Sequence record: NC_014467.1
DNA length: 64,000 bases
Reading direction: 5' to 3' (one strand)
From: Escherichia phage RB16
Numbering within the stretch: position 1 is the stretch's first letter; each line of letters opens with the position of its first letter. Both the position numbers and the translations under genes were made by a program. Positions 4,221 to 14,944 of the stretch are shown in pieces. The notes below the pieces were generated by a model. The model saw nothing but the letters and a program-made list of their open reading frames with translations. It was not told the DNA's origin and did no database searches.

Positions 4221-4756
4221 GATTCTTTTTTCCGTGGAGTCGGCACGAGTACCTTTCCGTCTATCTCAATTTCCATATGTGCGAAGTTGAACATAGCCAT
4301 ACAGGAAACGGCTTCATCCGAGTCATTAGTGTACATAAGCTCAAGCTCTCCCAGGTTGGAGGGCCAAGCACCATAAAAGCGAAATGTCGCCACAGTTTTT
4401 GATTGCGAGTTATCCAGGATGTGTAAAGCCATTGCCTGTTGTGGTTCACTCCATCGAATTGAATCGAAGGTGTTAAAATCACAGGTTCCAAGCATCCACA
4501 GGTAAACACCCAGATACGAACGCAATTCTTCATCAACAGCAAAACGGATAGTCAACGGATCGAACTCCATTGCAGATCCAGGGATTTTCCCACGGATCAT
4601 AGGGTTCAATGGTACTTCCGTAATTGGAATGTTGACAGAAGGTAGTGTAACACCCTGAATTTGTAGTTTCAACCCTTTCATATAATCATTATCAGGAATA
4701 TCTAACATAAAGTTAGTTGGTGAAATCTGGTTCAGGATCATAGCAGTAGTGTTCAT
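4217..4756 (-). CDS. 3: gp3 tail completion and sheath stabiliser protein
   Basis: 179 aa, position after gene 1 as in T4 (T4 gp3 is about 176 aa). Confidence 0.65.
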   Translation of the reverse strand: MNTTAMILNQISPTNFMLDIPDNDYMKGLKLQIQGVTLPSVNIPITEVPLNPMIRGKIPGSAMEFDPLTIRFAVDEELRSYLGVYLWMLGTCDFNTFDSIRWSEPQQAMALHILDNSQSKTVATFRFYGAWPSNLGELELMYTNDSDEAVSCMAMFNFAHMEIEIDGKVLVPTPRKKES

Positions 4757-4789
4757 TAATGATCTCCATTTTGTAGATATTTATGTAGA

Positions 4790-4960
4790 CCGTGAGCGAA
4801 GCGAACACACGAACGAAGTGAGTGTTTTTTAACTCAACTACATAATTATATATTTATATTTTATATATAGAGAAAAATGTAGTTTTTGGTATAGTTTTTA
4901 ACCAACTGTAAACTATCCGTCTTCGCTTCGCTTGACGGAACTCGCTTCGCTCGTGATCTT
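4790..4960 (+). repeat. repeat cassette copy A: GC-rich inverted-repeat arms flanking an AT-rich core
   Basis: Arms GAGCGAAGCGA...ACGAACGAAGTGAGTG (4794-4824) and TTCGCTTCGCT...TCGCTTCGCTC (4921-4955); core about 90% identical to copy B at 41798-41966. Confidence 0.8.
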
Positions 4961-4970
4961 GAAAAACTAT

Positions 4971-4999
4971 TTGACCCTTTCAATAAATAGGTATATCAT
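4971..4999 (+). promoter_or_regulatory. sigma70-like early promoter (TTGACC-17-TATCAT) in front of the Ip-like gene; an AATAAATA late-promoter-like motif lies in the spacer
   Basis: Hexamer match and spacing; directly downstream of repeat copy A. Confidence 0.45.
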
Positions 5000-5027
5000 A
5001 CCTATACTTTCAAAAGAGATTGAAAAC

Positions 5028-5813
5028 ATGAAATCATTCAAAGAACTACTGTCTGAATCTGTTCAGACCAAAAAATTTGCTAAAACTGTTGATCTGGTTG
5101 ACCGTGGTAATGCTTCAAAAGGTCAGATCGGTTTCCTGCACTTTGCACACGGTGCTGATTACGATGTGTATGCGCCGGACTCTCACGATCTCGCCTACTT
5201 CGGTAAAGGTGTTGTTCGCCTGAAAGGTAAAACCACTGGTAAAACTCAGGCTGCATATGTTGACTGGGCGAAAGGTACGGTTTCTTTCTATAGCGGCGAT
5301 CCGGCAGATGACCTGAAATTCGACAAGCCAGCGAAATTCAAAGGCGCTTCCCTGTACAAAGAAGCCGAAGAAAATCTGGATCTGTATAATCAGTTAGCGG
5401 AAGACTTCGAAATTGATGTACCGATGGATGAAGCACTGGTGAAAGGTAAGGTGTACAAGCTCCCAAGCAACGATATGCGCTTGCTGTATACCGGACGTAC
5501 CAAAAACAAGCCTACAGGTGAATACGCTGTGTTTACGGTTGTAGATGCCTCCGGTAAGCCTCGTCTGGTATCGGGTAAACGATTTACCCAGGAATACAAA
5601 GGCGATATGCTGTCTAAACTGGTTCTCGCTGAATCGGAAGATCTGAACGAGGCCGCTAAAGGCATTCGCGAAAAAGTTATTGCGGTGTTGGTGAAGCGCG
5701 GGTTTAACGAAAAAGATGCAGAAAAGATGGTTGATAAAAACCTAAAAGATGCGATGAAAGTTCGCCCTGGTGCAACTCCAGGAAAACTAGCGGAAATCGT
5801 GAGCACCTTGTAA
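5028..5813 (+). CDS. internal-protein-like basic protein with capsid-targeting leader (Ip-like)
   Basis: N-terminus MKSFKELLSE matches the T4 internal-protein leader pattern MKTYQEFIAE cleaved by gp21 after L/I-x-E; Lys-rich 262-aa product; strong terminator downstream; ORF track gives a longer ORF from 4932. Confidence 0.6.
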   Translation: MKSFKELLSESVQTKKFAKTVDLVDRGNASKGQIGFLHFAHGADYDVYAPDSHDLAYFGKGVVRLKGKTTGKTQAAYVDWAKGTVSFYSGDPADDLKFDKPAKFKGASLYKEAEENLDLYNQLAEDFEIDVPMDEALVKGKVYKLPSNDMRLLYTGRTKNKPTGEYAVFTVVDASGKPRLVSGKRFTQEYKGDMLSKLVLAESEDLNEAAKGIREKVIAVLVKRGFNEKDAEKMVDKNLKDAMKVRPGATPGKLAEIVSTL

Positions 5814-5817
5814 AAAT

Positions 5818-5848
5818 AAAGCCCCTTCCTTTCGGTTGGGGCTTTTTT
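5818..5848. terminator. bidirectional rho-independent terminator (AAAGCCCC-loop-GGGGCTTT + T7), copy 1
   Basis: Hairpin between convergent Ip-like gene (+) and gp2 (-); near-identical hairpin at 42925-42958. Confidence 0.75.
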
Positions 5849-6702
5849 TAATATCGGTTCCAAACTTTTTTCGCGCTGTATGGTTTTCCTTTCGACTGGA
5901 AAGCCTGTGTAGGCAACCAAACTGCTTTCGCCCAGTCTTTTGGGGCTATCTCTGCAAGAGGTGATCGCAGGTGCGCAGGTAAGTATGCTTTGATCATTTG
6001 ATCTGCACCGCGCATCCCTTTCACGTTGTTCCAGTTGATTTTCAATCTGGTTTTGTTTGAAAGGCGATCTGTTGATCCGTATCCACGTTTCAAAAGTTCT
6101 TCTAAAAACTCTTGACGGGCTTTAGGTGGCGCATAGTGCAAGTTCAAACCGTACAGAACTAAATTACCCGCTTTAGAACGTCCTGAACCCAGGAAGATGA
6201 TTAGCGGGAACCGATCCCAGTATGGTAGGGTATCTTTGTATTTCGCGTCATACACGAACGTATACAATCGCCCTGTTGCTGGTTTCGCTACCCTGTGCGT
6301 TTTGATGCTGGTTTTGATGAAGTCACCAAACCAATCGGTTGAATCCTTTTGACGTTTCGCAGCAGAAACACCCACTGTAATTTTCCGTAAACTATTTCGG
6401 AAGTCGTTGATGATGTCAACTGTATGTTTTTTGCGATAGTCATTGCGTTTTCGTCGGGCTTCGGTTTCTGCTGTACGTCGCGAGATTTCATCATCAATCT
6501 GCTGTTTATAGCGGTGCATAGACTTTGTGAACGTTGCGTATGCAATCCCGTTTTCGTCCGCGAATTTTTTGGCTGTCATGCCTTTTAATTTTGCGCGTCT
6601 GAATTTAACACCCAGTTCAACCCATTCACCAAGTTTTCGCTTCGGTGGCGGTTTCGGCTTATCTTCTTCTGCGATGATCTCAAACTCAAATATAAAACTC
6701 AT
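5848..6702 (-). CDS. 2: gp2 DNA end protector protein
   Basis: 284 aa, position and size as T4 gp2; basic N-terminus. Confidence 0.7.
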   Translation of the reverse strand: MSFIFEFEIIAEEDKPKPPPKRKLGEWVELGVKFRRAKLKGMTAKKFADENGIAYATFTKSMHRYKQQIDDEISRRTAETEARRKRNDYRKKHTVDIINDFRNSLRKITVGVSAAKRQKDSTDWFGDFIKTSIKTHRVAKPATGRLYTFVYDAKYKDTLPYWDRFPLIIFLGSGRSKAGNLVLYGLNLHYAPPKARQEFLEELLKRGYGSTDRLSNKTRLKINWNNVKGMRGADQMIKAYLPAHLRSPLAEIAPKDWAKAVWLPTQAFQSKGKPYSAKKVWNRY

Positions 6703-7388
6703 AATTCCCTCCGTTTACACTTATCACCATGCCAACGTTTAAACATACCCGGCCTGAAACTATTACCGCAGTATTGGCATTCCATTTTCTCTATATTTGA
6801 AACTGCTTCCCTTATGCGTATCTTTTGTTCTTCTGTTCGGGGTTTCCCCTTTCTAGCATCTGCTGATTTTTTTACTGCATCAGGGGGCATAGTTTTTCCT
6901 GAACATGAGATAGAAATTTTTTGTTTATGTTCTTCTGATAGAGATCTCCCTACCTTAGCGTTTCTCATCTTTTCTATAGACTGTTCGTTGAATAGCCCTG
7001 GTCGAGTTTTACCTTTCAATGGATTGACCCACCCATCTTTCATTTTGCGAGATTTACCTATTTTTGCTTTACTCATTTTCTCTCGCGTTTCGCTGGATGC
7101 TGTTGTGTATGATACCCCACCCTCCCCACCAATTTTTAAATTGTATGTGTGTTCCGATAGCACGAACTCGCGATTGACAAGTTCCTTTTCTTTATCATAC
7201 ATTTCAGAAGGGGTGTCAAACACATACAATATACTTTTTGTGAAGTTGTGTATGCCATATTTGGTTTGTGCTTTCAATAAAAGTTTACCAGACCCCATAT
7301 ACGAATCATTCACATCTGTGGTTGCATGTGCGCCGATATAAATTTTATCGTTGATATTGTTTTTAATCTGATAGACTAAATATTTCAT
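6699..7388 (-). CDS. GIY-YIG homing endonuclease (Seg-like) inserted between genes 2 and 4
   Basis: N-terminal KYLVYQIKNNINDKIYIGAHATT GIY-YIG motif; C-terminal CQYCGNSF zinc finger; start chosen at the Met before the motif, which abuts the gp4 stop (7385-7387) in ATGA form. Confidence 0.8.
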   Translation of the reverse strand: MKYLVYQIKNNINDKIYIGAHATTDVNDSYMGSGKLLLKAQTKYGIHNFTKSILYVFDTPSEMYDKEKELVNREFVLSEHTYNLKIGGEGGVSYTTASSETREKMSKAKIGKSRKMKDGWVNPLKGKTRPGLFNEQSIEKMRNAKVGRSLSEEHKQKISISCSGKTMPPDAVKKSADARKGKPRTEEQKIRIREAVSNIEKMECQYCGNSFRPGMFKRWHGDKCKRREL

Positions 7389-7858
7389 TTCTCGTACCCT
7401 TTCCATCCAAAAACACGTTTGAGGGTGTCTTCGGTTATGATCTTGAACTCCCATCCTTTTGCTTTACATGCAGCATTGGCGGCTTTCCATTTGTCTATAT
7501 TTATGGAGTAAACATAGAGAGCATCAACAAATTTCTTTTTGTTGTGAACGTTGTTGTTCGCTGGCTTAGGTGGGGGCAATGTTTCTTTCATCGGTTTGAC
7601 TTCCCATAGGTAGGTCACACCGTTATCCATCTCAACATAAAAATCCATGAAGTAACGCCGTCTTTTACCGTCTGCGTTGCTGAAATAAGGTATCACAACC
7701 TCTTCACTGTTCCAGCGTTTCACATGCGGATTCCTGTCAAGCCAGTTCATTATATATTTTTCCCAGCTTGACCGATACGTTATCTTTCGAGGATCGCCTT
7801 TATATTTTGTTATGTTCTGGGGCATAAAAGACCCCTTGTACGTCTGTCTTCCAGCCAT
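7385..7858 (-). CDS. 4: gp4 head completion protein
   Basis: 157 aa, position relative to genes 2 and 53. Confidence 0.7.
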   Translation of the reverse strand: MAGRQTYKGSFMPQNITKYKGDPRKITYRSSWEKYIMNWLDRNPHVKRWNSEEVVIPYFSNADGKRRRYFMDFYVEMDNGVTYLWEVKPMKETLPPPKPANNNVHNKKKFVDALYVYSINIDKWKAANAACKAKGWEFKIITEDTLKRVFGWKGYEK

Positions 7859-7902: not shown

Positions 7903-8457
7903 ATGTTATTCTCGTTCTTTCCACCAGTTGATTACAAAGGCACACCGACTACTGATATTTTTCGGGATTATCGTTTTTACTTTAATCGCGTTATCAGAAA
8001 TTATAAGCCACGTACTTATCAACTGACCGGATCACTAAGACCCGAACAATTAGCTGAAACGCTATACGGAAACCAACAATATTATTGGGTTATCCTGATG
8101 CTCAATGATAACTATGACCCGTTTTACGGATGGATTACAGATCAGGAAACCGCTTATCAATGCGCGGTGCAGCGTTATTCAAAAGTAGGTGGTGAACAGG
8201 TTCTTTATCATATGGATGGGAAAAACAACCGATATTACAATCTGGTTGAAGATCCTAACAACCCTGGTCATTGGTATGACAAAGGTGATAAAGATATGCG
8301 GTATTTGCAATATCAAGGAACATTAGTCCCTATTGATATTTATGAAGATGCAGTGTTGAAAAATGAATCAATGCGAACCATCAAAATTATTAACCCTTCG
8401 GATATTCAATCGTTTGTAAGCGATTATATCAAGGAAATGGAAAAGGCGAATCTATGA
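7903..8457 (+). CDS. 53: gp53 baseplate wedge subunit
   Basis: 184 aa, immediately upstream of gp5 with 4-nt overlap. Confidence 0.8.
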   Translation: MLFSFFPPVDYKGTPTTDIFRDYRFYFNRVIRNYKPRTYQLTGSLRPEQLAETLYGNQQYYWVILMLNDNYDPFYGWITDQETAYQCAVQRYSKVGGEQVLYHMDGKNNRYYNLVEDPNNPGHWYDKGDKDMRYLQYQGTLVPIDIYEDAVLKNESMRTIKIINPSDIQSFVSDYIKEMEKANL

Positions 8458-10220
8458 AATTCGGTGGAAATATGCATTCCCCTTTCTTTGAGGGGGTGGT
8501 CGAAAACGTTGATGATCCTCGTCTACTGGGGCGTGTTCAGGTGCGTGTATTTGGTGAGCATCCGGCACAGAAACAAAAATCTGAAACTATCGGTATTCCG
8601 GTTGAGGAATTGCCGTGGATGATGCCTATTCAGGATATTCGCAGCGCCGCTATTTCCGGTGTTGGTTTTTCTCCGACTGGTATTACGCGCGGTAGTTTCG
8701 TTATCGGTTACTGGCGCGATAAATGGCACCAGGACGGCGTTATACTGGGAACCTTTGCTGGTGAGTACCGAGAGAAACCGGACACCCAGAAAGGCTTCTG
8801 TGACCCGTTTGGTGAGTATCCTCGTTATGTAGGTAACGATGTCAACGTACTGGCTCGCGGTGGTGCAGAAGGACGCGGTTCTTCAAGCGTGATTATTCGT
8901 GATGCTAACAGTTCGTTAGCTGTCAATCCAGATGATCGCCCACTTGATGAGATTCCAGAAGATAACCGACCTGATACTGGTGGGTTTACGATAGAAAAAA
9001 TGATCCGTGGTGATGAAGGTATTAGATTGACGTGGTATTATGATGTTAAAGGTTATACCATCGGGATCGGACACTTTTTCTTAACCGCACCACAAGGAAC
9101 AGACCCAGCAGTTGTTAACGCGGCGTTATCTAGACAAATTGGCAGAACGGTTACTGGTGTTCCTGGATCAATCACTGCTGATGAAGCGAGTGTTTTATTT
9201 CAGCAGGATTTAGCTAAAGTTCATAACGATATTCAGAATAATAGCAAAGTTCGGGAAGTGTATGTGACGTTAAACCGTCCTCGTCAAATGGCTATTGAAA
9301 ATATGTGCTTCCAAATGGGCGTTGGCGGTGTCGCCAAATTTACTAATGCTCTGGCTGCTATGAAGCGTCAGGACTGGAAAACCGCTTACAACGAACTGCG
9401 AAACTCTACATGGGCTAACCAGACGCCAGGACGTTCTTCACGCGTATCTAAAATCGTGCTGACGGGCAACCTTGAATCATACGGTGTTCAGGTTCCAGAT
9501 CCAGAAGGACGTTCATTGAGTGCTGCTTATAATGCGGTGGTTCTGCAAACAAGCAACCCAGAAGATCCTTTTGTTCCTGGTGATACCCGCGTAATGTTCG
9601 AGGAACCTAAATCGGCATACGCTGCTGAATATCCATACAACATGGTATTCGAATCCCGTTCTGGACACATTCAGGAATTCGACGACACCCCAGGCTTTGA
9701 GCGTTACAACCGCGTTCACCCAGCAGGATCATACGAAGAAATTCGTCCTGATGGAACCCGTGTTGTTAAAATCGTTGGTGATGATTATCTGATTGTTCAA
9801 CAGGGAAGAAAGGTAAACATCAAAGGTAATTTACAAGTAGTGATCGAAGGTGATGCGTTCATTTACAATATGGGTAACGTTCAACAGACTGTCGATGGAA
9901 ACGTAACTGAGTTCGTGCGCGGTAACGTAAACCAGACTGTCGAGGGTGAATATGTTGGGCGTATCAAAGGTAACGCAGAATTAACCGTCGAAAAAGATGC
10001 TACTGTAAACGTGGATCAGAATTTAATGGCTAACGTTAAACAGAATGCAACTGTTAACGTAACCGAAGATGCAACTGTTACCGCAAAAAATGCGATGATG
10101 GATATTGAACAAGACTTCGATTTAAACGCGAACAATATCACAATGGTTGCCCGACAAAATACACTAATCGATTCCGGTTCTCTGACTAAGATTACTGGCG
10201 GGACAGTCCAGGTAGGTTAA
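8454..10220 (+). CDS. 5: gp5 baseplate hub subunit and tail lysozyme
   Basis: Central T4-lysozyme-like domain (EGIRLTWYYDVKGYTIGIGHF...FQMGVGGVAKFTN...WANQTPGRSSRV) and C-terminal beta-helix repeats (VNQTVEGEYVG, NATVNVTEDATV). Confidence 0.95.
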   Translation: MKFGGNMHSPFFEGVVENVDDPRLLGRVQVRVFGEHPAQKQKSETIGIPVEELPWMMPIQDIRSAAISGVGFSPTGITRGSFVIGYWRDKWHQDGVILGTFAGEYREKPDTQKGFCDPFGEYPRYVGNDVNVLARGGAEGRGSSSVIIRDANSSLAVNPDDRPLDEIPEDNRPDTGGFTIEKMIRGDEGIRLTWYYDVKGYTIGIGHFFLTAPQGTDPAVVNAALSRQIGRTVTGVPGSITADEASVLFQQDLAKVHNDIQNNSKVREVYVTLNRPRQMAIENMCFQMGVGGVAKFTNALAAMKRQDWKTAYNELRNSTWANQTPGRSSRVSKIVLTGNLESYGVQVPDPEGRSLSAAYNAVVLQTSNPEDPFVPGDTRVMFEEPKSAYAAEYPYNMVFESRSGHIQEFDDTPGFERYNRVHPAGSYEEIRPDGTRVVKIVGDDYLIVQQGRKVNIKGNLQVVIEGDAFIYNMGNVQQTVDGNVTEFVRGNVNQTVEGEYVGRIKGNAELTVEKDATVNVDQNLMANVKQNATVNVTEDATVTAKNAMMDIEQDFDLNANNITMVARQNTLIDSGSLTKITGGTVQVG

Positions 10221-10222
10221 TC

Positions 10223-12295
10223 ATGATCATGGATTATGAATCCATCATTGATGGAATTATGCAAGATTTTCAGCATCCATGTGATGCTGAAATACCTGCT
10301 GGATCGTACAGACGTATTATCTGGCAGGGACATACAGAAGACTACCCCGCTGTCGGGGTAGAATGGGATACTGAAATAATTCCGATCGGGGCGCATCTTT
10401 ACACACAATCCCCTTTCGGACAGAAAAGCGATCCGCTTCCGGTAGTTAACTCCCCTGGAACCGATCCAGGAACTGGGGAAGCAACTGGGATTCTTGTAGA
10501 AAAGATAGGTTATTATTTCGCCACACAACAGGAGATTGATGACTATATCACTTCTATCGGGGCAACAAAACTAACTGGTAATGATTGGTACGGCGCGGAT
10601 CTGACAAAAGCAAACCTGTATAAAAACCCTGGGGAACTCGCGATGTATAAGGTCGAGAACTCTGGAGGTTATTTGCTTACTTCTGGCCCACGTTGCGATC
10701 AACGCATCAGACAGGCATATAATGAGGACACAGGCGCGTTTACAAGCATTGATTACTATTGGAATGGTAATCGTATTGCCTACATGAAACACGACGACAC
10801 AGGGGCGCACAATTGCAAATACGTGGGTATGGTGGTTAACACCAACGCCGACACAAGCATTCCCCCTGTACCTCCGGCTATGCCGTCAATTTACGGGGCA
10901 TTGCCTAGCGAAATTTCAATGATGCGCTCCGGTTTGGGTTGTCTTCCTGCAACGGTAGGTTTTGCGTACACGAATATCAGTGATGCAATGCTATCCGCAT
11001 GGAACGAAACGCGCAAGTCGTTTAAGCTCGTGTTTGATATGCTTACGGGTATCACTAAAACGGGTTCCGGTGGTATCTCCACGATGTACGATGGTTTGTC
11101 TATCGCAATGGAGGAAATCACAGCAGGTGCTCTTGCGTTGTCACAGCAAGCATGGCAAGCCGCAATTAAGGTGTTCAAAGATATTATGTCTTCTGCGTTA
11201 AACATCGTAGGTGGTGCGTGGAACATGATAAAGAGTTTTTTACCGACTGTTACGATTCTGGGTGTTTCAATAAACATCTATGATTTGATTTTTGGTGATA
11301 ACTCAGTACAGACACTGAAAGATTCATTCCAAGCGATCATTGATGCTGGTACAGAAACCTATGAGAACGTCATAAACGCAATATACAGCGCTATAGGCAG
11401 TGCATACAATTATACCGTTGAATATGTCAAGGCTGGCGCTCGCGACCTCGTGGATGCTTGCAGTACGCTTTTTGACTGGTGTATTACCATGTTTCAGAAT
11501 GGTTGTGTTGCTCTGGTGGATCTGTACGGACGAATAATGCAAATCTGGGCTATGCCTCCAACGGTTCCAAACCCTTTATGGGCTGCTGTTCTGGCTATCC
11601 GTAACATTATGATGCAAATCAAACCGCTTGATGTGATCCTGGGTGGAAACTTCCCTGGGTTTACGGCAATGGATTTGTACCAAATGGCACAGGAGAAGGT
11701 GAAAGAGTTTATCGATCAGTCGTATGCGCAAATACGCGTGTATTATGATCAGGTTAAGGATCTGTATAACACACTGACTACACAGACACAAGAAAGGGAT
11801 GCGATTAAACGCAAGTTCGATCAATACCTAAACTGGATGTGGGAACCTGTAAAGGAAGCAACGACTGCTGCTTATCAGGCTGCACTTGATGCCGCTAACG
11901 CTGCTGTGAATGCGACTAAGGCCGCATATGAGGGAATCAAAGCACAGATTGCTAATCTGCAAAATGGGATGAAAGACACCTACAGCATGGCAATGGCTGA
12001 ACTCAAGAAACTGCCTGTAATGGCTCAGATTAACCAGTTCTTAGGTTACTGTGGGGTTGCATTCGATGACCTGTTAAAAACGTATGAGAACGCGCTGACG
12101 GGCGCACAATCGCTATATAAAAACTTTGTTGACAGTTCCCGCTCGTTTAAGGACACATGCAAGGTGATTTATAACCAGATTTGTACGCTTGCTCTAAGTA
12201 AGGTAACTCAATACGTAAACAAATTATTGTCATTAATCGGACTCGCGATCACATTCGGTTCAATTAGTGTTTGCGTCCCTATGGTTCAATACTAA
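10223..12295 (+). CDS. large hypothetical protein (690 aa) directly after gp5; candidate spike-tip/baseplate-associated protein
   Basis: Long uninterrupted ORF, start 3 nt after gp5 stop; N-terminal region with His/Cys and P-A-x-G-like repeats, long helical/hydrophobic C-terminal part; no recognisable T4 counterpart. Confidence 0.7.
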   Translation: MIMDYESIIDGIMQDFQHPCDAEIPAGSYRRIIWQGHTEDYPAVGVEWDTEIIPIGAHLYTQSPFGQKSDPLPVVNSPGTDPGTGEATGILVEKIGYYFATQQEIDDYITSIGATKLTGNDWYGADLTKANLYKNPGELAMYKVENSGGYLLTSGPRCDQRIRQAYNEDTGAFTSIDYYWNGNRIAYMKHDDTGAHNCKYVGMVVNTNADTSIPPVPPAMPSIYGALPSEISMMRSGLGCLPATVGFAYTNISDAMLSAWNETRKSFKLVFDMLTGITKTGSGGISTMYDGLSIAMEEITAGALALSQQAWQAAIKVFKDIMSSALNIVGGAWNMIKSFLPTVTILGVSINIYDLIFGDNSVQTLKDSFQAIIDAGTETYENVINAIYSAIGSAYNYTVEYVKAGARDLVDACSTLFDWCITMFQNGCVALVDLYGRIMQIWAMPPTVPNPLWAAVLAIRNIMMQIKPLDVILGGNFPGFTAMDLYQMAQEKVKEFIDQSYAQIRVYYDQVKDLYNTLTTQTQERDAIKRKFDQYLNWMWEPVKEATTAAYQAALDAANAAVNATKAAYEGIKAQIANLQNGMKDTYSMAMAELKKLPVMAQINQFLGYCGVAFDDLLKTYENALTGAQSLYKNFVDSSRSFKDTCKVIYNQICTLALSKVTQYVNKLLSLIGLAITFGSISVCVPMVQY

Positions 12296-12318
12296 ATACC
12301 CGATAACGAGGGGTAATA

Positions 12319-12996
12319 ATGAATTACGATAGGATATATAAAGCTCTTATAGATAAGCGGAGGAAAACTCCGCTTAAAGACGGATATAAGGAACATCATC
12401 ACATCATTCCTAAATCTATGGGCGGTAGTGATGATTTTGATAATATGGTGTATTTGACAGCGAGAGAACATTTCGTTGCGCATCTTTTACTCGCTCGTAT
12501 ACATGGTGGTAAGATGTGGTTTGCTGTTGCTATGATGTGTGGGCGTGGATCAAGTAGCGCGAAAGGCGTTGTCCCTACTTCTCGAATATATGAGTTAGCC
12601 AAAAAACGGGTAGCCAATGAAAGAAGTATATTGTTTTCTGGGAAATTACATCCATTATACGGAAAGCCTTGTACAGAACAACGAAGAAAACGCATAGCTG
12701 AAGGACGTAAAGGGAAAACGCATACTCAGGAAACGAAACAGAAAATGTCTGAATCGAAGAAAGGATATAAACATACTCAGGAGACGAAACAGAAAATGTC
12801 TGAGTCACGGAAGAGACAAACACCTCCTACTCTGGGTAAAAAGTTACCTTCTCCATCAATCGAAAAAAGAAAGAAACTTAGTGAGGCTATTAAAAATCAG
12901 CCAATCATCAAATGTCCATATTGCGGGTTAGAAAGTAACAGCAAAGGAAATATGGTGAGGTTTCATTTCGACAACTGCAAATATAGGAAACCATGA
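12319..12996 (+). CDS. HNH homing endonuclease with tandem NUMOD3-like DNA-binding motifs
   Basis: HNH core EHHHIIPKSMGGSDDFDNMVYLTAREHFVAH; repeats GKTHTQETKQKMSESKKG / YKHTQETKQKMSESRKR; C-terminal CPYCG zinc finger. Confidence 0.85.
   Translation: MNYDRIYKALIDKRRKTPLKDGYKEHHHIIPKSMGGSDDFDNMVYLTAREHFVAHLLLARIHGGKMWFAVAMMCGRGSSSAKGVVPTSRIYELAKKRVANERSILFSGKLHPLYGKPCTEQRRKRIAEGRKGKTHTQETKQKMSESKKGYKHTQETKQKMSESRKRQTPPTLGKKLPSPSIEKRKKLSEAIKNQPIIKCPYCGLESNSKGNMVRFHFDNCKYRKP
12721..12815 (+). repeat. tandem direct repeat (about 51 bp x2) encoding the NUMOD3 motifs
   Basis: CATACTCAGGAAACGAAACAGAAAATGTCTGAATC... repeated with few substitutions. Confidence 0.7.
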
Positions 12997-14909
12997 TGGC
13001 TACAACTCGTAAGCAAATTAATCAGATCCCCGATATCTTTGTCGGGGCTACTTTTGACGAAATCAAATCTGACTTAATCAACTGGCTCCGAGGTCAGGAC
13101 GAATTCAAGGATTATGATTTCTCCGGCTCGCGCATGAACGTACTTGTGGATCTGTTATCATACTGTACACTGTACATTCAGCAAATGAGTAACACCGCAC
13201 TGTTCGAATCGTTTATTCGTACCGCTGCATTGCGTAGTTCTGTTGTCCAACAGGCTCAGGATTTGGGCTATATGCCGGACTCCCGTACCGCTGCAAATAC
13301 TGCGATCCTGATCACTGCGAAGAACCCACTGAACCCGACATCGATCCGTATTCCACGCGGTACGAAATTCATTGGTACAGTGAAAGAAACAAACAGTTTC
13401 CCGTTCGTCGTATCCGATGACGTGGTGATTGTTCGTGATAAAGACAATAACTATGTTTCGATGTTGAACATCGTACAGGGGCGTTTAGTCCGTACCGAAG
13501 TCATCTTTGATGGTTCTACGATCCTGATTCGAGATCCTAACATCGACCGTAGTCAGGTTCGCGTTACTGTCAACGGCGCTCAATGGGATGACTGGACAAA
13601 CGAAAGTATCGTAAACGCAACGGGCGCATCAACAATTTTCTACATGCGTGAAACTGTGGATGGACATACCGAAGTTTACTTTGGTGAAGGTGAAACCAGC
13701 CAACAGGTCGCAGGTGGTGCTCTGACTGCGGATTACATCGGTGGCTTGAAACCTGCAAACGGTTCAACCGTTGTTATTGAATATATTTCAACCAACGGCG
13801 AAGAAGCAAACGGTGCTGAAAACTTTGTCTACGTGGATACGTTGACAAACATTAGCATTACGAATATTGTTGAGAACCCGACTGATTCAGCGGACTATGT
13901 AGGCGCTGATGGTGGTGGTGAACCGGAAGATATCGAACGTATTCGTGAACTCGCGCCTATTATGCGTGAGACACAGCGCCGTTGTGTTACTGCATCGGAT
14001 TATGAATCGTTCCTGTCTCACCGTTTCGGTTCTGTTATTCAGGCGGTTCAGTGCTTTACTGATAAAGAAAAACCTGGCTATGCGTTCATCGCTGTTAAAC
14101 CGAAATCAGGGTTGCGCTTAACCTCTGTTCAAAAAGAGGACATGCAAAACTATCTGGCGAAGTATAACCTGGCGACTATTACGCCGTCTATCCTTGACCC
14201 GAACTACCTGTATATTGTACAAAGCGTTAAAGTAACGTATGATATCAGTAAGTTGATCGAGTCTGAGGAATGGTTGCGTGGTCAAGTAATCAATGAAATT
14301 GACAGATACTACACAGATAACGTTGAAATTTTCAACAAATCTTTCAGTAAATCCAAGATGTTGACTTATGTTGATAACGCGGACGTGTCGATCATTGGTT
14401 CTTCTGCGACTATTCAGCTATTGCGTGAACTGGATAACTATTACAGCGCCCCGATGTCTGGTATTCACTTCTTAAACCAGGTGAAATCACGTTCTGTTGT
14501 TTCGAATGGGTTCAAGTACACAAATGCTGCTGGTGATTCGTATGATGTGCGCTATGCGTCAACAGATATGAACACCACGACCGGACTCGCGAAAATGGTT
14601 ATCGGGCCATTCAAAAACGGTGATATCGGTATCGCAGCCTATACAGGAAACGATTTTGATAAATATCCTGGAGTAACCGATCGTGATAAATATTACGAAG
14701 TCGGCTATGTGGAACATTTTAATGATTTCATTAGTTTCGATCTTGGTGTCCTGAACGTTCCATCCGAGCGATTCAGCGCTGCTTACATCGAACTGACTGG
14801 TACACCTCTGGAAGAGAACATTTTCACCCGTGATGGTTCTCTGATTGTATTTGAAAACGATCTACGTCCTCAATATACAACGTTGACGATGAATCCAATC
14901 AGTCAATAA
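12993..14909 (+). CDS. 6: gp6 baseplate wedge subunit
   Basis: N-terminus IPDIFVGATFDEIKSDLINWLRGQDEFKDYDFSGSRMNVL and internal ADGGGEPEDIERIRE match T4 gp6 as I recall it; 638 aa. Confidence 0.9.
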   Translation: MMATTRKQINQIPDIFVGATFDEIKSDLINWLRGQDEFKDYDFSGSRMNVLVDLLSYCTLYIQQMSNTALFESFIRTAALRSSVVQQAQDLGYMPDSRTAANTAILITAKNPLNPTSIRIPRGTKFIGTVKETNSFPFVVSDDVVIVRDKDNNYVSMLNIVQGRLVRTEVIFDGSTILIRDPNIDRSQVRVTVNGAQWDDWTNESIVNATGASTIFYMRETVDGHTEVYFGEGETSQQVAGGALTADYIGGLKPANGSTVVIEYISTNGEEANGAENFVYVDTLTNISITNIVENPTDSADYVGADGGGEPEDIERIRELAPIMRETQRRCVTASDYESFLSHRFGSVIQAVQCFTDKEKPGYAFIAVKPKSGLRLTSVQKEDMQNYLAKYNLATITPSILDPNYLYIVQSVKVTYDISKLIESEEWLRGQVINEIDRYYTDNVEIFNKSFSKSKMLTYVDNADVSIIGSSATIQLLRELDNYYSAPMSGIHFLNQVKSRSVVSNGFKYTNAAGDSYDVRYASTDMNTTTGLAKMVIGPFKNGDIGIAAYTGNDFDKYPGVTDRDKYYEVGYVEHFNDFISFDLGVLNVPSERFSAAYIELTGTPLEENIFTRDGSLIVFENDLRPQYTTLTMNPISQ

Positions 14910-14914
14910 TTTAC

Positions 14915-14944
14915 AACCCCTGTCATTTGGCAGGGGTTTTTTGT
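14915..14944 (+). terminator. rho-independent terminator after gp6
   Basis: CCCCTG-tcatttgg-CAGGGG followed by T6. Confidence 0.65.

Follow-up and report, generated by a model that had tools for sequence, protein, structure and literature searches.

A large non-PAAR protein as the probable spike tip in the gene 5 to gene 6 interval of Escherichia phage RB16

What forms the tip of the central spike in a T4-like phage in which no gene 5.4 is found? This question is raised by a locus of Escherichia phage RB16 (NC_014467.1), of which one strand of 64,000 nucleotides (nt) was analysed. The whole of this stretch is called the window, and positions are counted from its first letter. Directly behind gene 5, the window carries a 690-residue open reading frame (ORF) in the place where T4 has the genes 5.1 to 5.4. 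The original prediction proposed that its product is a PAAR-like tip fused to a large membrane-active or ejected cargo domain. Our analysis supports one part of this proposal, the replacement of the tip, but not another, the PAAR fold. We conclude that the ORF probably encodes an RB43-type spike-tip protein of ~77 kDa, a predicted virion component that would replace T4 gp5.4. The features that carry this conclusion are the following.

10223..12295, + strand: the 690-residue ORF, orthologue of RB43 orf205w (PHROG 5296) and candidate non-PAAR spike-tip protein; alternative start at 10229.
8454..10220, + strand: gp5, baseplate hub and tail lysozyme (central spike), 588 residues; Pfam Gp5_OB 1e-61, Phage_lysozyme and Gp5_C; PHROG 430.
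9960..10217, + strand: beta-helix end of gp5, residues ~503–588, ending ...KITGGTVQVG, which travels with the downstream gene.

Part of the answer has been given before. Mattenberger et al. (bioRxiv 2025; PMC12407873) reported that a gene 5.4 orthologue is missing from RB43, RB16 and Lw1, and that the T4 5.1–5.4 locus is taken by orf205w, a protein of ~690 residues with a mixture of helices and strands in residues 1–220 and helices in the rest. They named RB43 orf205w a 'putative spike tip protein'. In their cryo-electron microscopy map of the RB43 baseplate at 17.7 Å a larger protein is seen at the spike tip, 'possibly' orf205w, and this density accommodates an orf205w structure that the authors predicted with AlphaFold at low confidence (PMC12407873). 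Since the preprint names orf205w as the tip candidate, the central idea is already known: a large protein replacing the PAAR tip has been proposed by specialists, with low-resolution imaging support, and is unproven. New here are a confident structural model with a predicted fold unmatched in the PDB, the formal rejection of the PAAR and tape-measure assignments, a signature in the gp5 C-terminus, and a natural chimera, Escherichia phage vB_EcoM_G8 (NC_054915.1). The argument from co-inheritance of the gp5 C-terminus and the downstream gene as a cassette is not found in the accessible part of the preprint's text (PMC12407873).

A comparison with other phages places the window in an RB43-like T4 relative (Pseudotevenvirus) and identifies the ORF, by similarity and position, as the orthologue of RB43 orf205w. 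The RB43 copy, RB43ORF205w, is annotated as hypothetical and has the same length and the same slot between genes 5 and 6. The protein is 94–95% identical to RB43 orf205w (YP_239181.1) and to its counterpart in Citrobacter phage Miller (94.6% for Miller). At the DNA level the closest relative is Buttiauxella phage GuL6 (92%), followed by RB43 (91%) and Miller (~90%), and the ORF with its flanks is 100% identical to IMG/VR contig UViG_648936715_000001. PHROG 5296 matches the protein over residues 3–690 with E=0. The family comprises 52 clusters of 580–717 residues (all 664–717 except P0048, 580 residues) with identities down to 35%. All conservation counts given below are based on an alignment of 50 sequences with identities down to 36%. 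By tblastn, family members are found in 214 phage records.

The position of the gene is constant. In every context that was read, the family gene follows gene 5 directly, either overlapping it or separated from it by no more than 4 nt. This holds for RB43, GuL6, phi1_146015, Cronobacter S13, Proteus PM2 (Bragavirus), E. coli Bp7 (Dhakavirus) and G8 (Tequatrovirus). The order gp53–gp5–ORF–gp6 is found in Pseudotevenvirus, a Klebsiella relative, S13, PM2, G8 and Bp7, as well as in each of 12 IMG/VR loci and in two distant members from metagenomes (P0053, P0054). Two records deviate in other respects. On JGI contig Ga0620835_007198 (219–3624), a distant 743-residue family member stands behind a short gp5 of 389 residues; an OB domain is detected in this gp5, no match to a lysozyme domain is on record, and the ending is nonetheless FTGGTVVVG. 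In Escherichia phage phT4A (NC_055712.1, 101438–102907) the tblastn match covers residues 198–690 only (71%), and the family gene there may be truncated or split.

The constancy of position is accompanied by a change in gp5 itself. All gp5 proteins that were read in front of a family gene share the ending G(G/A)(T/N)V(Q/S/V)VG, which takes the form KITGGTVQVG in the window and KITGANVQVG, KVSGGNVQVG, FTGGTVSVG and FTGGTVVVG elsewhere. The gp5 of T4 and of CC31, which carry gp5.4, ends in DGSRIDIG. The most instructive case is G8, which is classified in Tequatrovirus, the genus of T4. Its gp53 and gp6 are 99.5% and 99.7% identical to those of T4. Up to alignment column 520, its gp5 agrees with T4 gp5 at 97–100% of the residues in every stretch of 40 columns; in columns 561–600 the identity is 18%. 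The DNA homology between G8 and T4 (98.4%) stops at gp5 codon ~502 and restarts 10 nt before gene 6 (G8 4233–6529). The insert consists of a new beta-helix end and a 678-residue family member, which replace 5.1–segC–5.3–5.4, and in the complete G8 genome neither gp5.4 nor gp5.1 is found. This module is closest to that of Dhakavirus Bp7, with 89% amino-acid identity in the gp5 C-terminus and 72.5% in the tip protein.

Because the gp5 endings covary with the downstream gene and both were swapped together in G8, the end of gp5 and the tip gene are inherited and exchanged as a unit. The last ~85 residues of gp5 and the tip gene thus form one recombination cassette that moves between genera. Co-inheritance together with mutual exclusion with gp5.4 is the pattern expected of a direct binding partner of the beta-helix end. 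A finer mosaicism is observed in the window itself (8454–12295), where gp5 is 99.3% identical to that of Miller at the amino-acid level and the adjoining tip gene ~90% identical in nucleotides and 94.6% in amino acids; this difference in identity points to a recombination junction near the boundary of gene 5 and the tip gene.

The same covariation and co-transfer with the gp5 C-terminus would also be expected of a gp5-specific assembly factor or chaperone, which folds or caps the beta-helix end during hub assembly and is not kept in the virion. The tip density of RB43 would then be something else. Some of the points that weigh against a spike-tip protein are compatible with such a chaperone. 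Virion mass-spectrometry data that would identify the protein directly are not found in the literature for any phage that carries a family member: the proteomics of Klebsiella phage ValerieMcCarty concerns a Jiaodavirus, phiEap-3 was described without mass spectrometry, and the main text of the KP15/KP27 paper reports no such data. Production of a complex of orf205w with a gp5 beta-helix fragment by co-expression failed, and the authors themselves grade the tip assignment as 'possible', from a map at 17.7 Å with imposed C6 symmetry (PMC12407873). Furthermore, a folded protein of 77 kDa is a blunt object for a piercing device. On the other hand, RB43 virions do have a larger tip (PMC12407873), the gene 5 to gene 6 interval holds no other candidate gene for it, and 690 well-conserved and confidently folded residues are much for the chaperone of a segment of ~85 residues. 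We therefore regard a chaperone as rather unlikely and a spike-tip protein as the probable identity of the ORF product. That the gene takes the 5.1–5.4 slot of T4, as originally predicted, is borne out by its position. A tight link of the protein to the gp5 beta-helix tip is supported by the covariation of the gp5 endings and by the cassette swap in G8, and the preprint, which is independent of these comparisons, names the gene as candidate for the larger tip density.

If the slot is taken, a gene for gp5.4 or another PAAR protein could still be located elsewhere. No such gene was found by phmmer with T4 and CC31 gp5.4 in the six-frame ORFs of the window and of the complete RB43 genome (best E 0.4), nor by phmmer in the complete G8 genome. 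With a hidden Markov model (HMM) built from 55 gp5.4 sequences, the best E is 0.37 over the 64-kb window and both complete genomes, RB43 and G8; the gp5.4 proteins of T4 and CC31, used as controls, score 1e-57. The top noise match, at window 53698–53892, was examined as a hidden PAAR gene and rejected, with no Pfam match at E<=10 and no real ORF. In 1,485 phage records gp5.4 is readily detected by tblastn, down to ~25–35% identity. The family and gp5.4 are mutually exclusive in the complete RB43 and G8 genomes. The earlier observation that no separate small PAAR-like gene is visible thus holds for the window and extends to these two genomes.

Is the PAAR fold then contained in the 690-residue protein itself? 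The fusion of a PAAR-like tip domain to a cargo or effector domain was suggested by the gene position and by features of the first 60 residues, which contain His and Cys residues and three P-A/I-x-G-like segments. Both features are indeed present in the RB16 protein, with P[AI]x0-1G segments at residues 25, 42 and 54 and with His18, Cys20, His37 and His58, but they are mostly not conserved across the family. The site that defines PAAR proteins is composed of three His and one Cys in tetrahedral arrangement at the apex. Among the 50 family sequences this His3Cys site is not conserved (C20 in 49, H18 in 34, H37 in 13, H58 in 29), and P19, C20, G27 and P42 are the only conserved positions here. 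When the first 100 residues are shuffled, three P[AI]x0-1G matches arise in 0.27% of cases, but the pattern had been picked after the fact.

Profile comparisons are likewise negative. Pfam gives no match at E<=1 on the whole protein or on residues 1–240, while the PAAR_motif controls are recovered (T4 gp5.4 9e-10, CC31 gp5.4 5e-9). None of the 50 family members scores above 0.8 bits with the 55-sequence gp5.4 HMM, and hhalign of the N-terminal family alignment against gp5.4 gives a probability of 0.06%. A relation of the N-terminal domain to T4 gp5.1 was also considered and ruled out (hhalign probability 0.14%). The PAAR fold, a cone of three beta-hairpins with local threefold symmetry, is not seen in the 690-residue protein; structure prediction yields a mixed alpha/beta domain at the N-terminus instead. 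The 690-residue protein is not a PAAR protein, and a PAAR–effector fusion, contradicted by the sequence tests and by the predicted fold, is the least probable of the readings considered.

The structural model gives a picture of what the protein is predicted to look like. AlphaFold2 with the 50-sequence alignment gave a predicted local distance difference test score (pLDDT) of 86.6 and a predicted template modelling score of 0.75. The following parts are distinguished, with hydrophobicity as the mean on the Kyte–Doolittle scale.

10223..10867, + strand: N-terminal alpha/beta domain, residues 1 to ~215, without counterpart among solved structures.
11105..12232, + strand: helical bundle, residues 295–670, with long helices 405–442, 482–536, 545–582 and 639–670.
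11237..11293, + strand: hydrophobic beta-hairpin, residues 339–357, FLPTVTILGVSINIYDLIF, between helices; hydrophobicity 1.63, family mean 1.29.
12224..12280, + strand: hydrophobic C-terminal segment, residues 668–686; hydrophobicity 2.04, family mean 1.8; model strand 681–689.

Residues ~20–200 modelled alone form a mixed alpha/beta domain with a pLDDT above 90, and this confidently predicted domain has no match in the PDB. The bundle of residues 295–670 is amphipathic. In the hairpin, the model places strands at residues 342–345 and 348–351, and P341 and G347 are invariant in the family. Both hydrophobic elements, 339–357 and 668–686, are conserved in the family, and in the model they are packed into a soluble fold. 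Residues 641–670, just before the C-terminal segment, are the most conserved stretch of the family (major-residue frequency 0.80); other well-conserved blocks are residues 444–486 and the N-terminal SIGAT..NDWYGADLSK. Candidate segments for contact with the threefold-symmetric end of the gp5 beta-helix are residues 641–690 and the block 444–486. The helix hairpin 482–582 is the most variable part. The description of the rest of the protein as long, helical and partly hydrophobic with a hydrophobic C-terminal tail is thus confirmed by the model helices and by the Kyte–Doolittle peaks at 668–686 and 339–357.

The helical part explains the labels under which the family is found in databases. GenBank names are 'tail length tape measure protein', 'baseplate hub structural protein' and 'SbcC-like', and these labels are due to weak PHROG matches over residues 250–657 (E 2.5e-14 to 1e-3). 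A profile search of 1.84 billion representative proteins returned 18 matches, of which 13 belong to the phage family itself (8 full-length and 5 fragments). The remaining matches are weak and lie in helical regions of other proteins; three of these are real tape-measure proteins (E 6e-7 to 3.5e-5). Because the search returned only members from T4-like phages and weak helical matches, the helical domain is without another informative context. One might take the protein, as several automatic annotations do, for a second tape-measure or tube-lumen protein. The profile matches, however, are confined to apolipoprotein-like helical parts outside the PhageMin_Tail and TMP_3 domains, there is no similarity to T4 gp29, and the predicted structure is compact, its N-terminal domain being globular. 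Moreover, RB43 has its own gp29 orthologue after gp28 (ORF103w and ORF104w, similar to phrog_7361 of 579 residues, to which the gp29 PHROG is related at 3e-10), and G8 keeps a T4-type gp29 of 590 residues (gp215) beside its family member. A second tape measure was ruled out as very improbable, because the similarity is one of helical regions only and gp29 orthologues coexist with the protein. The present analysis thus corrects the tape-measure, hub-structural and SbcC-like labels, which are now propagating.

An observation on the RB43 gp29 counterpart (RB43 11095–12826) may be added here. It is annotated as two ORFs, 103w (457 residues) and 104w (105 residues), which match positions 1–459 and 476–579 of the single 579-residue PHROG 7361. 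Behind the two-ORF annotation there may be a frameshift, an error in the sequence or a true split of the gene.

What could such a spike-tip protein do? Its place would be the blunt C-terminal end of the gp5 beta-helix, where T4 has gp5.4, a PAAR protein of 97 residues. No other part of the virion would cross the outer membrane or reach the periplasm before it. Because the spike tip meets the outer membrane first and enters the periplasm first, the amphipathic bundle is perhaps membrane-active or lipid-responsive. We put this forward tentatively, from position and composition, as a possibility that falls clearly short of even. The buried hydrophobic elements 339–357 and 668–686 would open on lipid contact, and the helical bundle would either help the phage to break through the outer membrane or become inserted in the inner one, preparing a conduit for DNA. 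A stronger form of this proposal is that the tip is a membrane-inserting translocon: the bundle would open in the periplasm and build or prime a DNA channel in the inner membrane, and the beta-helix end and the tip together would be an exchangeable 'penetration cassette'. We consider this form unlikely, though less so than the chaperone.

To our knowledge, the passage of myovirus DNA across the periplasm and the inner membrane after piercing of the outer membrane is unresolved, even for T4. With seven times the size of gp5.4, a new predicted fold and hidden hydrophobic elements, the tip would be a natural candidate for this step. If the proposal is true, the sharp PAAR cone on a contractile tail of the T4 type can be replaced by a 77-kDa protein whose fold has no example in the PDB, and in the case of G8 a penetration cassette has moved from a Dhakavirus-like phage into a Tequatrovirus.

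A different function would be that the tip protein serves mainly for recognition, with the N-terminal domain binding the lipopolysaccharide (LPS) core or a periplasmic or inner-membrane target and the helical part acting as a spacer. In keeping with this, the family is spread across many host genera, and the tip gene diverges independently of gp5, as the comparison with Miller shows (gp5 99.3%, tip 94.6% in amino acids). T4 gp5.4 is described as important specifically on hosts with deep-rough LPS (PMC12407873). The N-terminal domain, however, is conserved across hosts from Proteus to Klebsiella, and we judge a recognition protein to be quite improbable, somewhat more so than a chaperone.

A comparison of both kinds of spike tip is made possible by G8. 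Since its DNA is ~98% identical to that of T4 on both sides of the insert and differs there only by gp5 from codon ~503 to the end and by the tip gene, G8 offers an isogenic T4 system. The G8/T4 pair belongs to the best-developed phage genetic system, and the two tips can be compared directly in how the phage adsorbs, injects its DNA and grows on hosts with deep-rough LPS.

In the window, the ORF is part of a co-oriented gene block, whose other members and right-hand end are listed here.

7903..8457, + strand: gp53 baseplate wedge gene, Pfam Phage_gp53 5.9e-63; first of the co-oriented block 53–5–ORF–(HNH)–6.
12319..12996, + strand: HNH and NUMOD3 homing endonuclease, Pfam NUMOD3 3e-15 and HNH 2.7e-5; PHROG 655; outside the tip system.
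12993..14909, + strand: gp6 baseplate wedge gene with five Gp6 Pfam domains; right-hand border of the variable interval.
14915..14938, + strand: terminator-like hairpin after gene 6, a 10-pair stem followed by a T run.

The ORF listing, the Pfam matches and the junction sequence agree with the initial reading that the ORF follows gp5 after a gap of 2 nt and is itself followed by an HNH endonuclease and gp6. The junction of gene 5 and the ORF reads GGT TAA tc ATG, with both genes on the + strand, and the ribosome-binding site of the ORF, AGGTAGG, lies within the last codons of gene 5. Two in-frame ATGs are present at the start (MIMDY...), at 10223 and 10229, and the second corresponds to the MNY/MDY start of most homologues. 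The true start may therefore be 10229, 6 nt later than annotated.

No strong terminator-like hairpin is found between genes 5 and 6, where weak matches are at shuffle level (7 found, 5.7 expected); the strongest site downstream of the ORF is the one at 14915–14938. The exact T4 late-promoter octamer TATAAATA is not found on the + strand between 4858 and 33162, the whole baseplate and tail gene block. Elsewhere it is enriched (9 found, 2.6 expected). Upstream of gene 53 only the variant CTAAATATAG is present. Because the exact late promoter is not found in the block, the timing of ORF expression is taken from the gene block.

The HNH gene (12319–12996) overlaps the start of gene 6 by 4 nt and is not found at this position in RB43, GuL6, phi1_146015, G8, PM2 or Bp7. 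In T4 the interval between genes 5 and 6 carries another homing endonuclease, segC (GIY-YIG). With different homing endonucleases there in the window and in T4, the interval looks like a repeated landing site. A 251-residue GIY-YIG and NUMOD3 endonuclease gene (segE-like) is found at 6699–7454 on the − strand, between the gp2 and gp4 homologues, which adjoin each other in RB43 and GuL6. The gp4 (head completion) homologue, at 7385–7858 on the − strand, matches Pfam Tn7_TnsA-like_N (endonuclease fold) at 6.6e-23, above the curated cut-off.

A comparison with known systems shows where the RB16 protein stands. The nearest is RB43 orf205w, its orthologue, with the same length and slot, and both genomes belong to groups without gene 5.4. 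RB43 differs in lacking the HNH homing endonuclease that adjoins the RB16 copy, and otherwise in nothing essential. T4 gp5.4 and the PAAR-repeat proteins of the type VI secretion system (T6SS) (PF05488; PDB entries 4KU0, 4JIV and 4JIW) share the slot downstream of the spike gene and, presumably, the location on the blunt end of the spike beta-helix. They have no similarity in sequence or fold to the RB16 protein, which is seven times larger, composed of alpha/beta and helical parts and without the conserved His3Cys site, whereas PAAR proteins are three-hairpin cones. T4 gp29 and other tape-measure proteins are also helical and of similar length, with the weak PHROG and profile matches in helical regions. 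T4 gp29 is not homologous, however, and the RB16 gene adjoins gene 5 instead of lying between genes 28 and 48.

Specialised PAAR proteins and evolved VgrG proteins with a C-terminal effector share with the RB16 protein a concept, that of a tip adaptor whose large extra module is the first thing to enter the envelope of the target. They differ in that the RB16 protein lacks any PAAR or VgrG module, and a toxin domain is not recognisable in it. Its 690-residue architecture is conserved as a whole and found only in T4-like phages. The analogy with T6SS PAAR effectors would be functional at most and not one of homology. Also among the closest systems are the alpha-helical pore-forming toxins and translocators (ClyA/Hbl/Nhe, YaxAB/XaxAB, AhlC, IpaB), of which the ClyA/Hbl and YaxAB/XaxAB type combines a helical bundle with a hydrophobic hairpin 'tongue' that inserts into the membrane.

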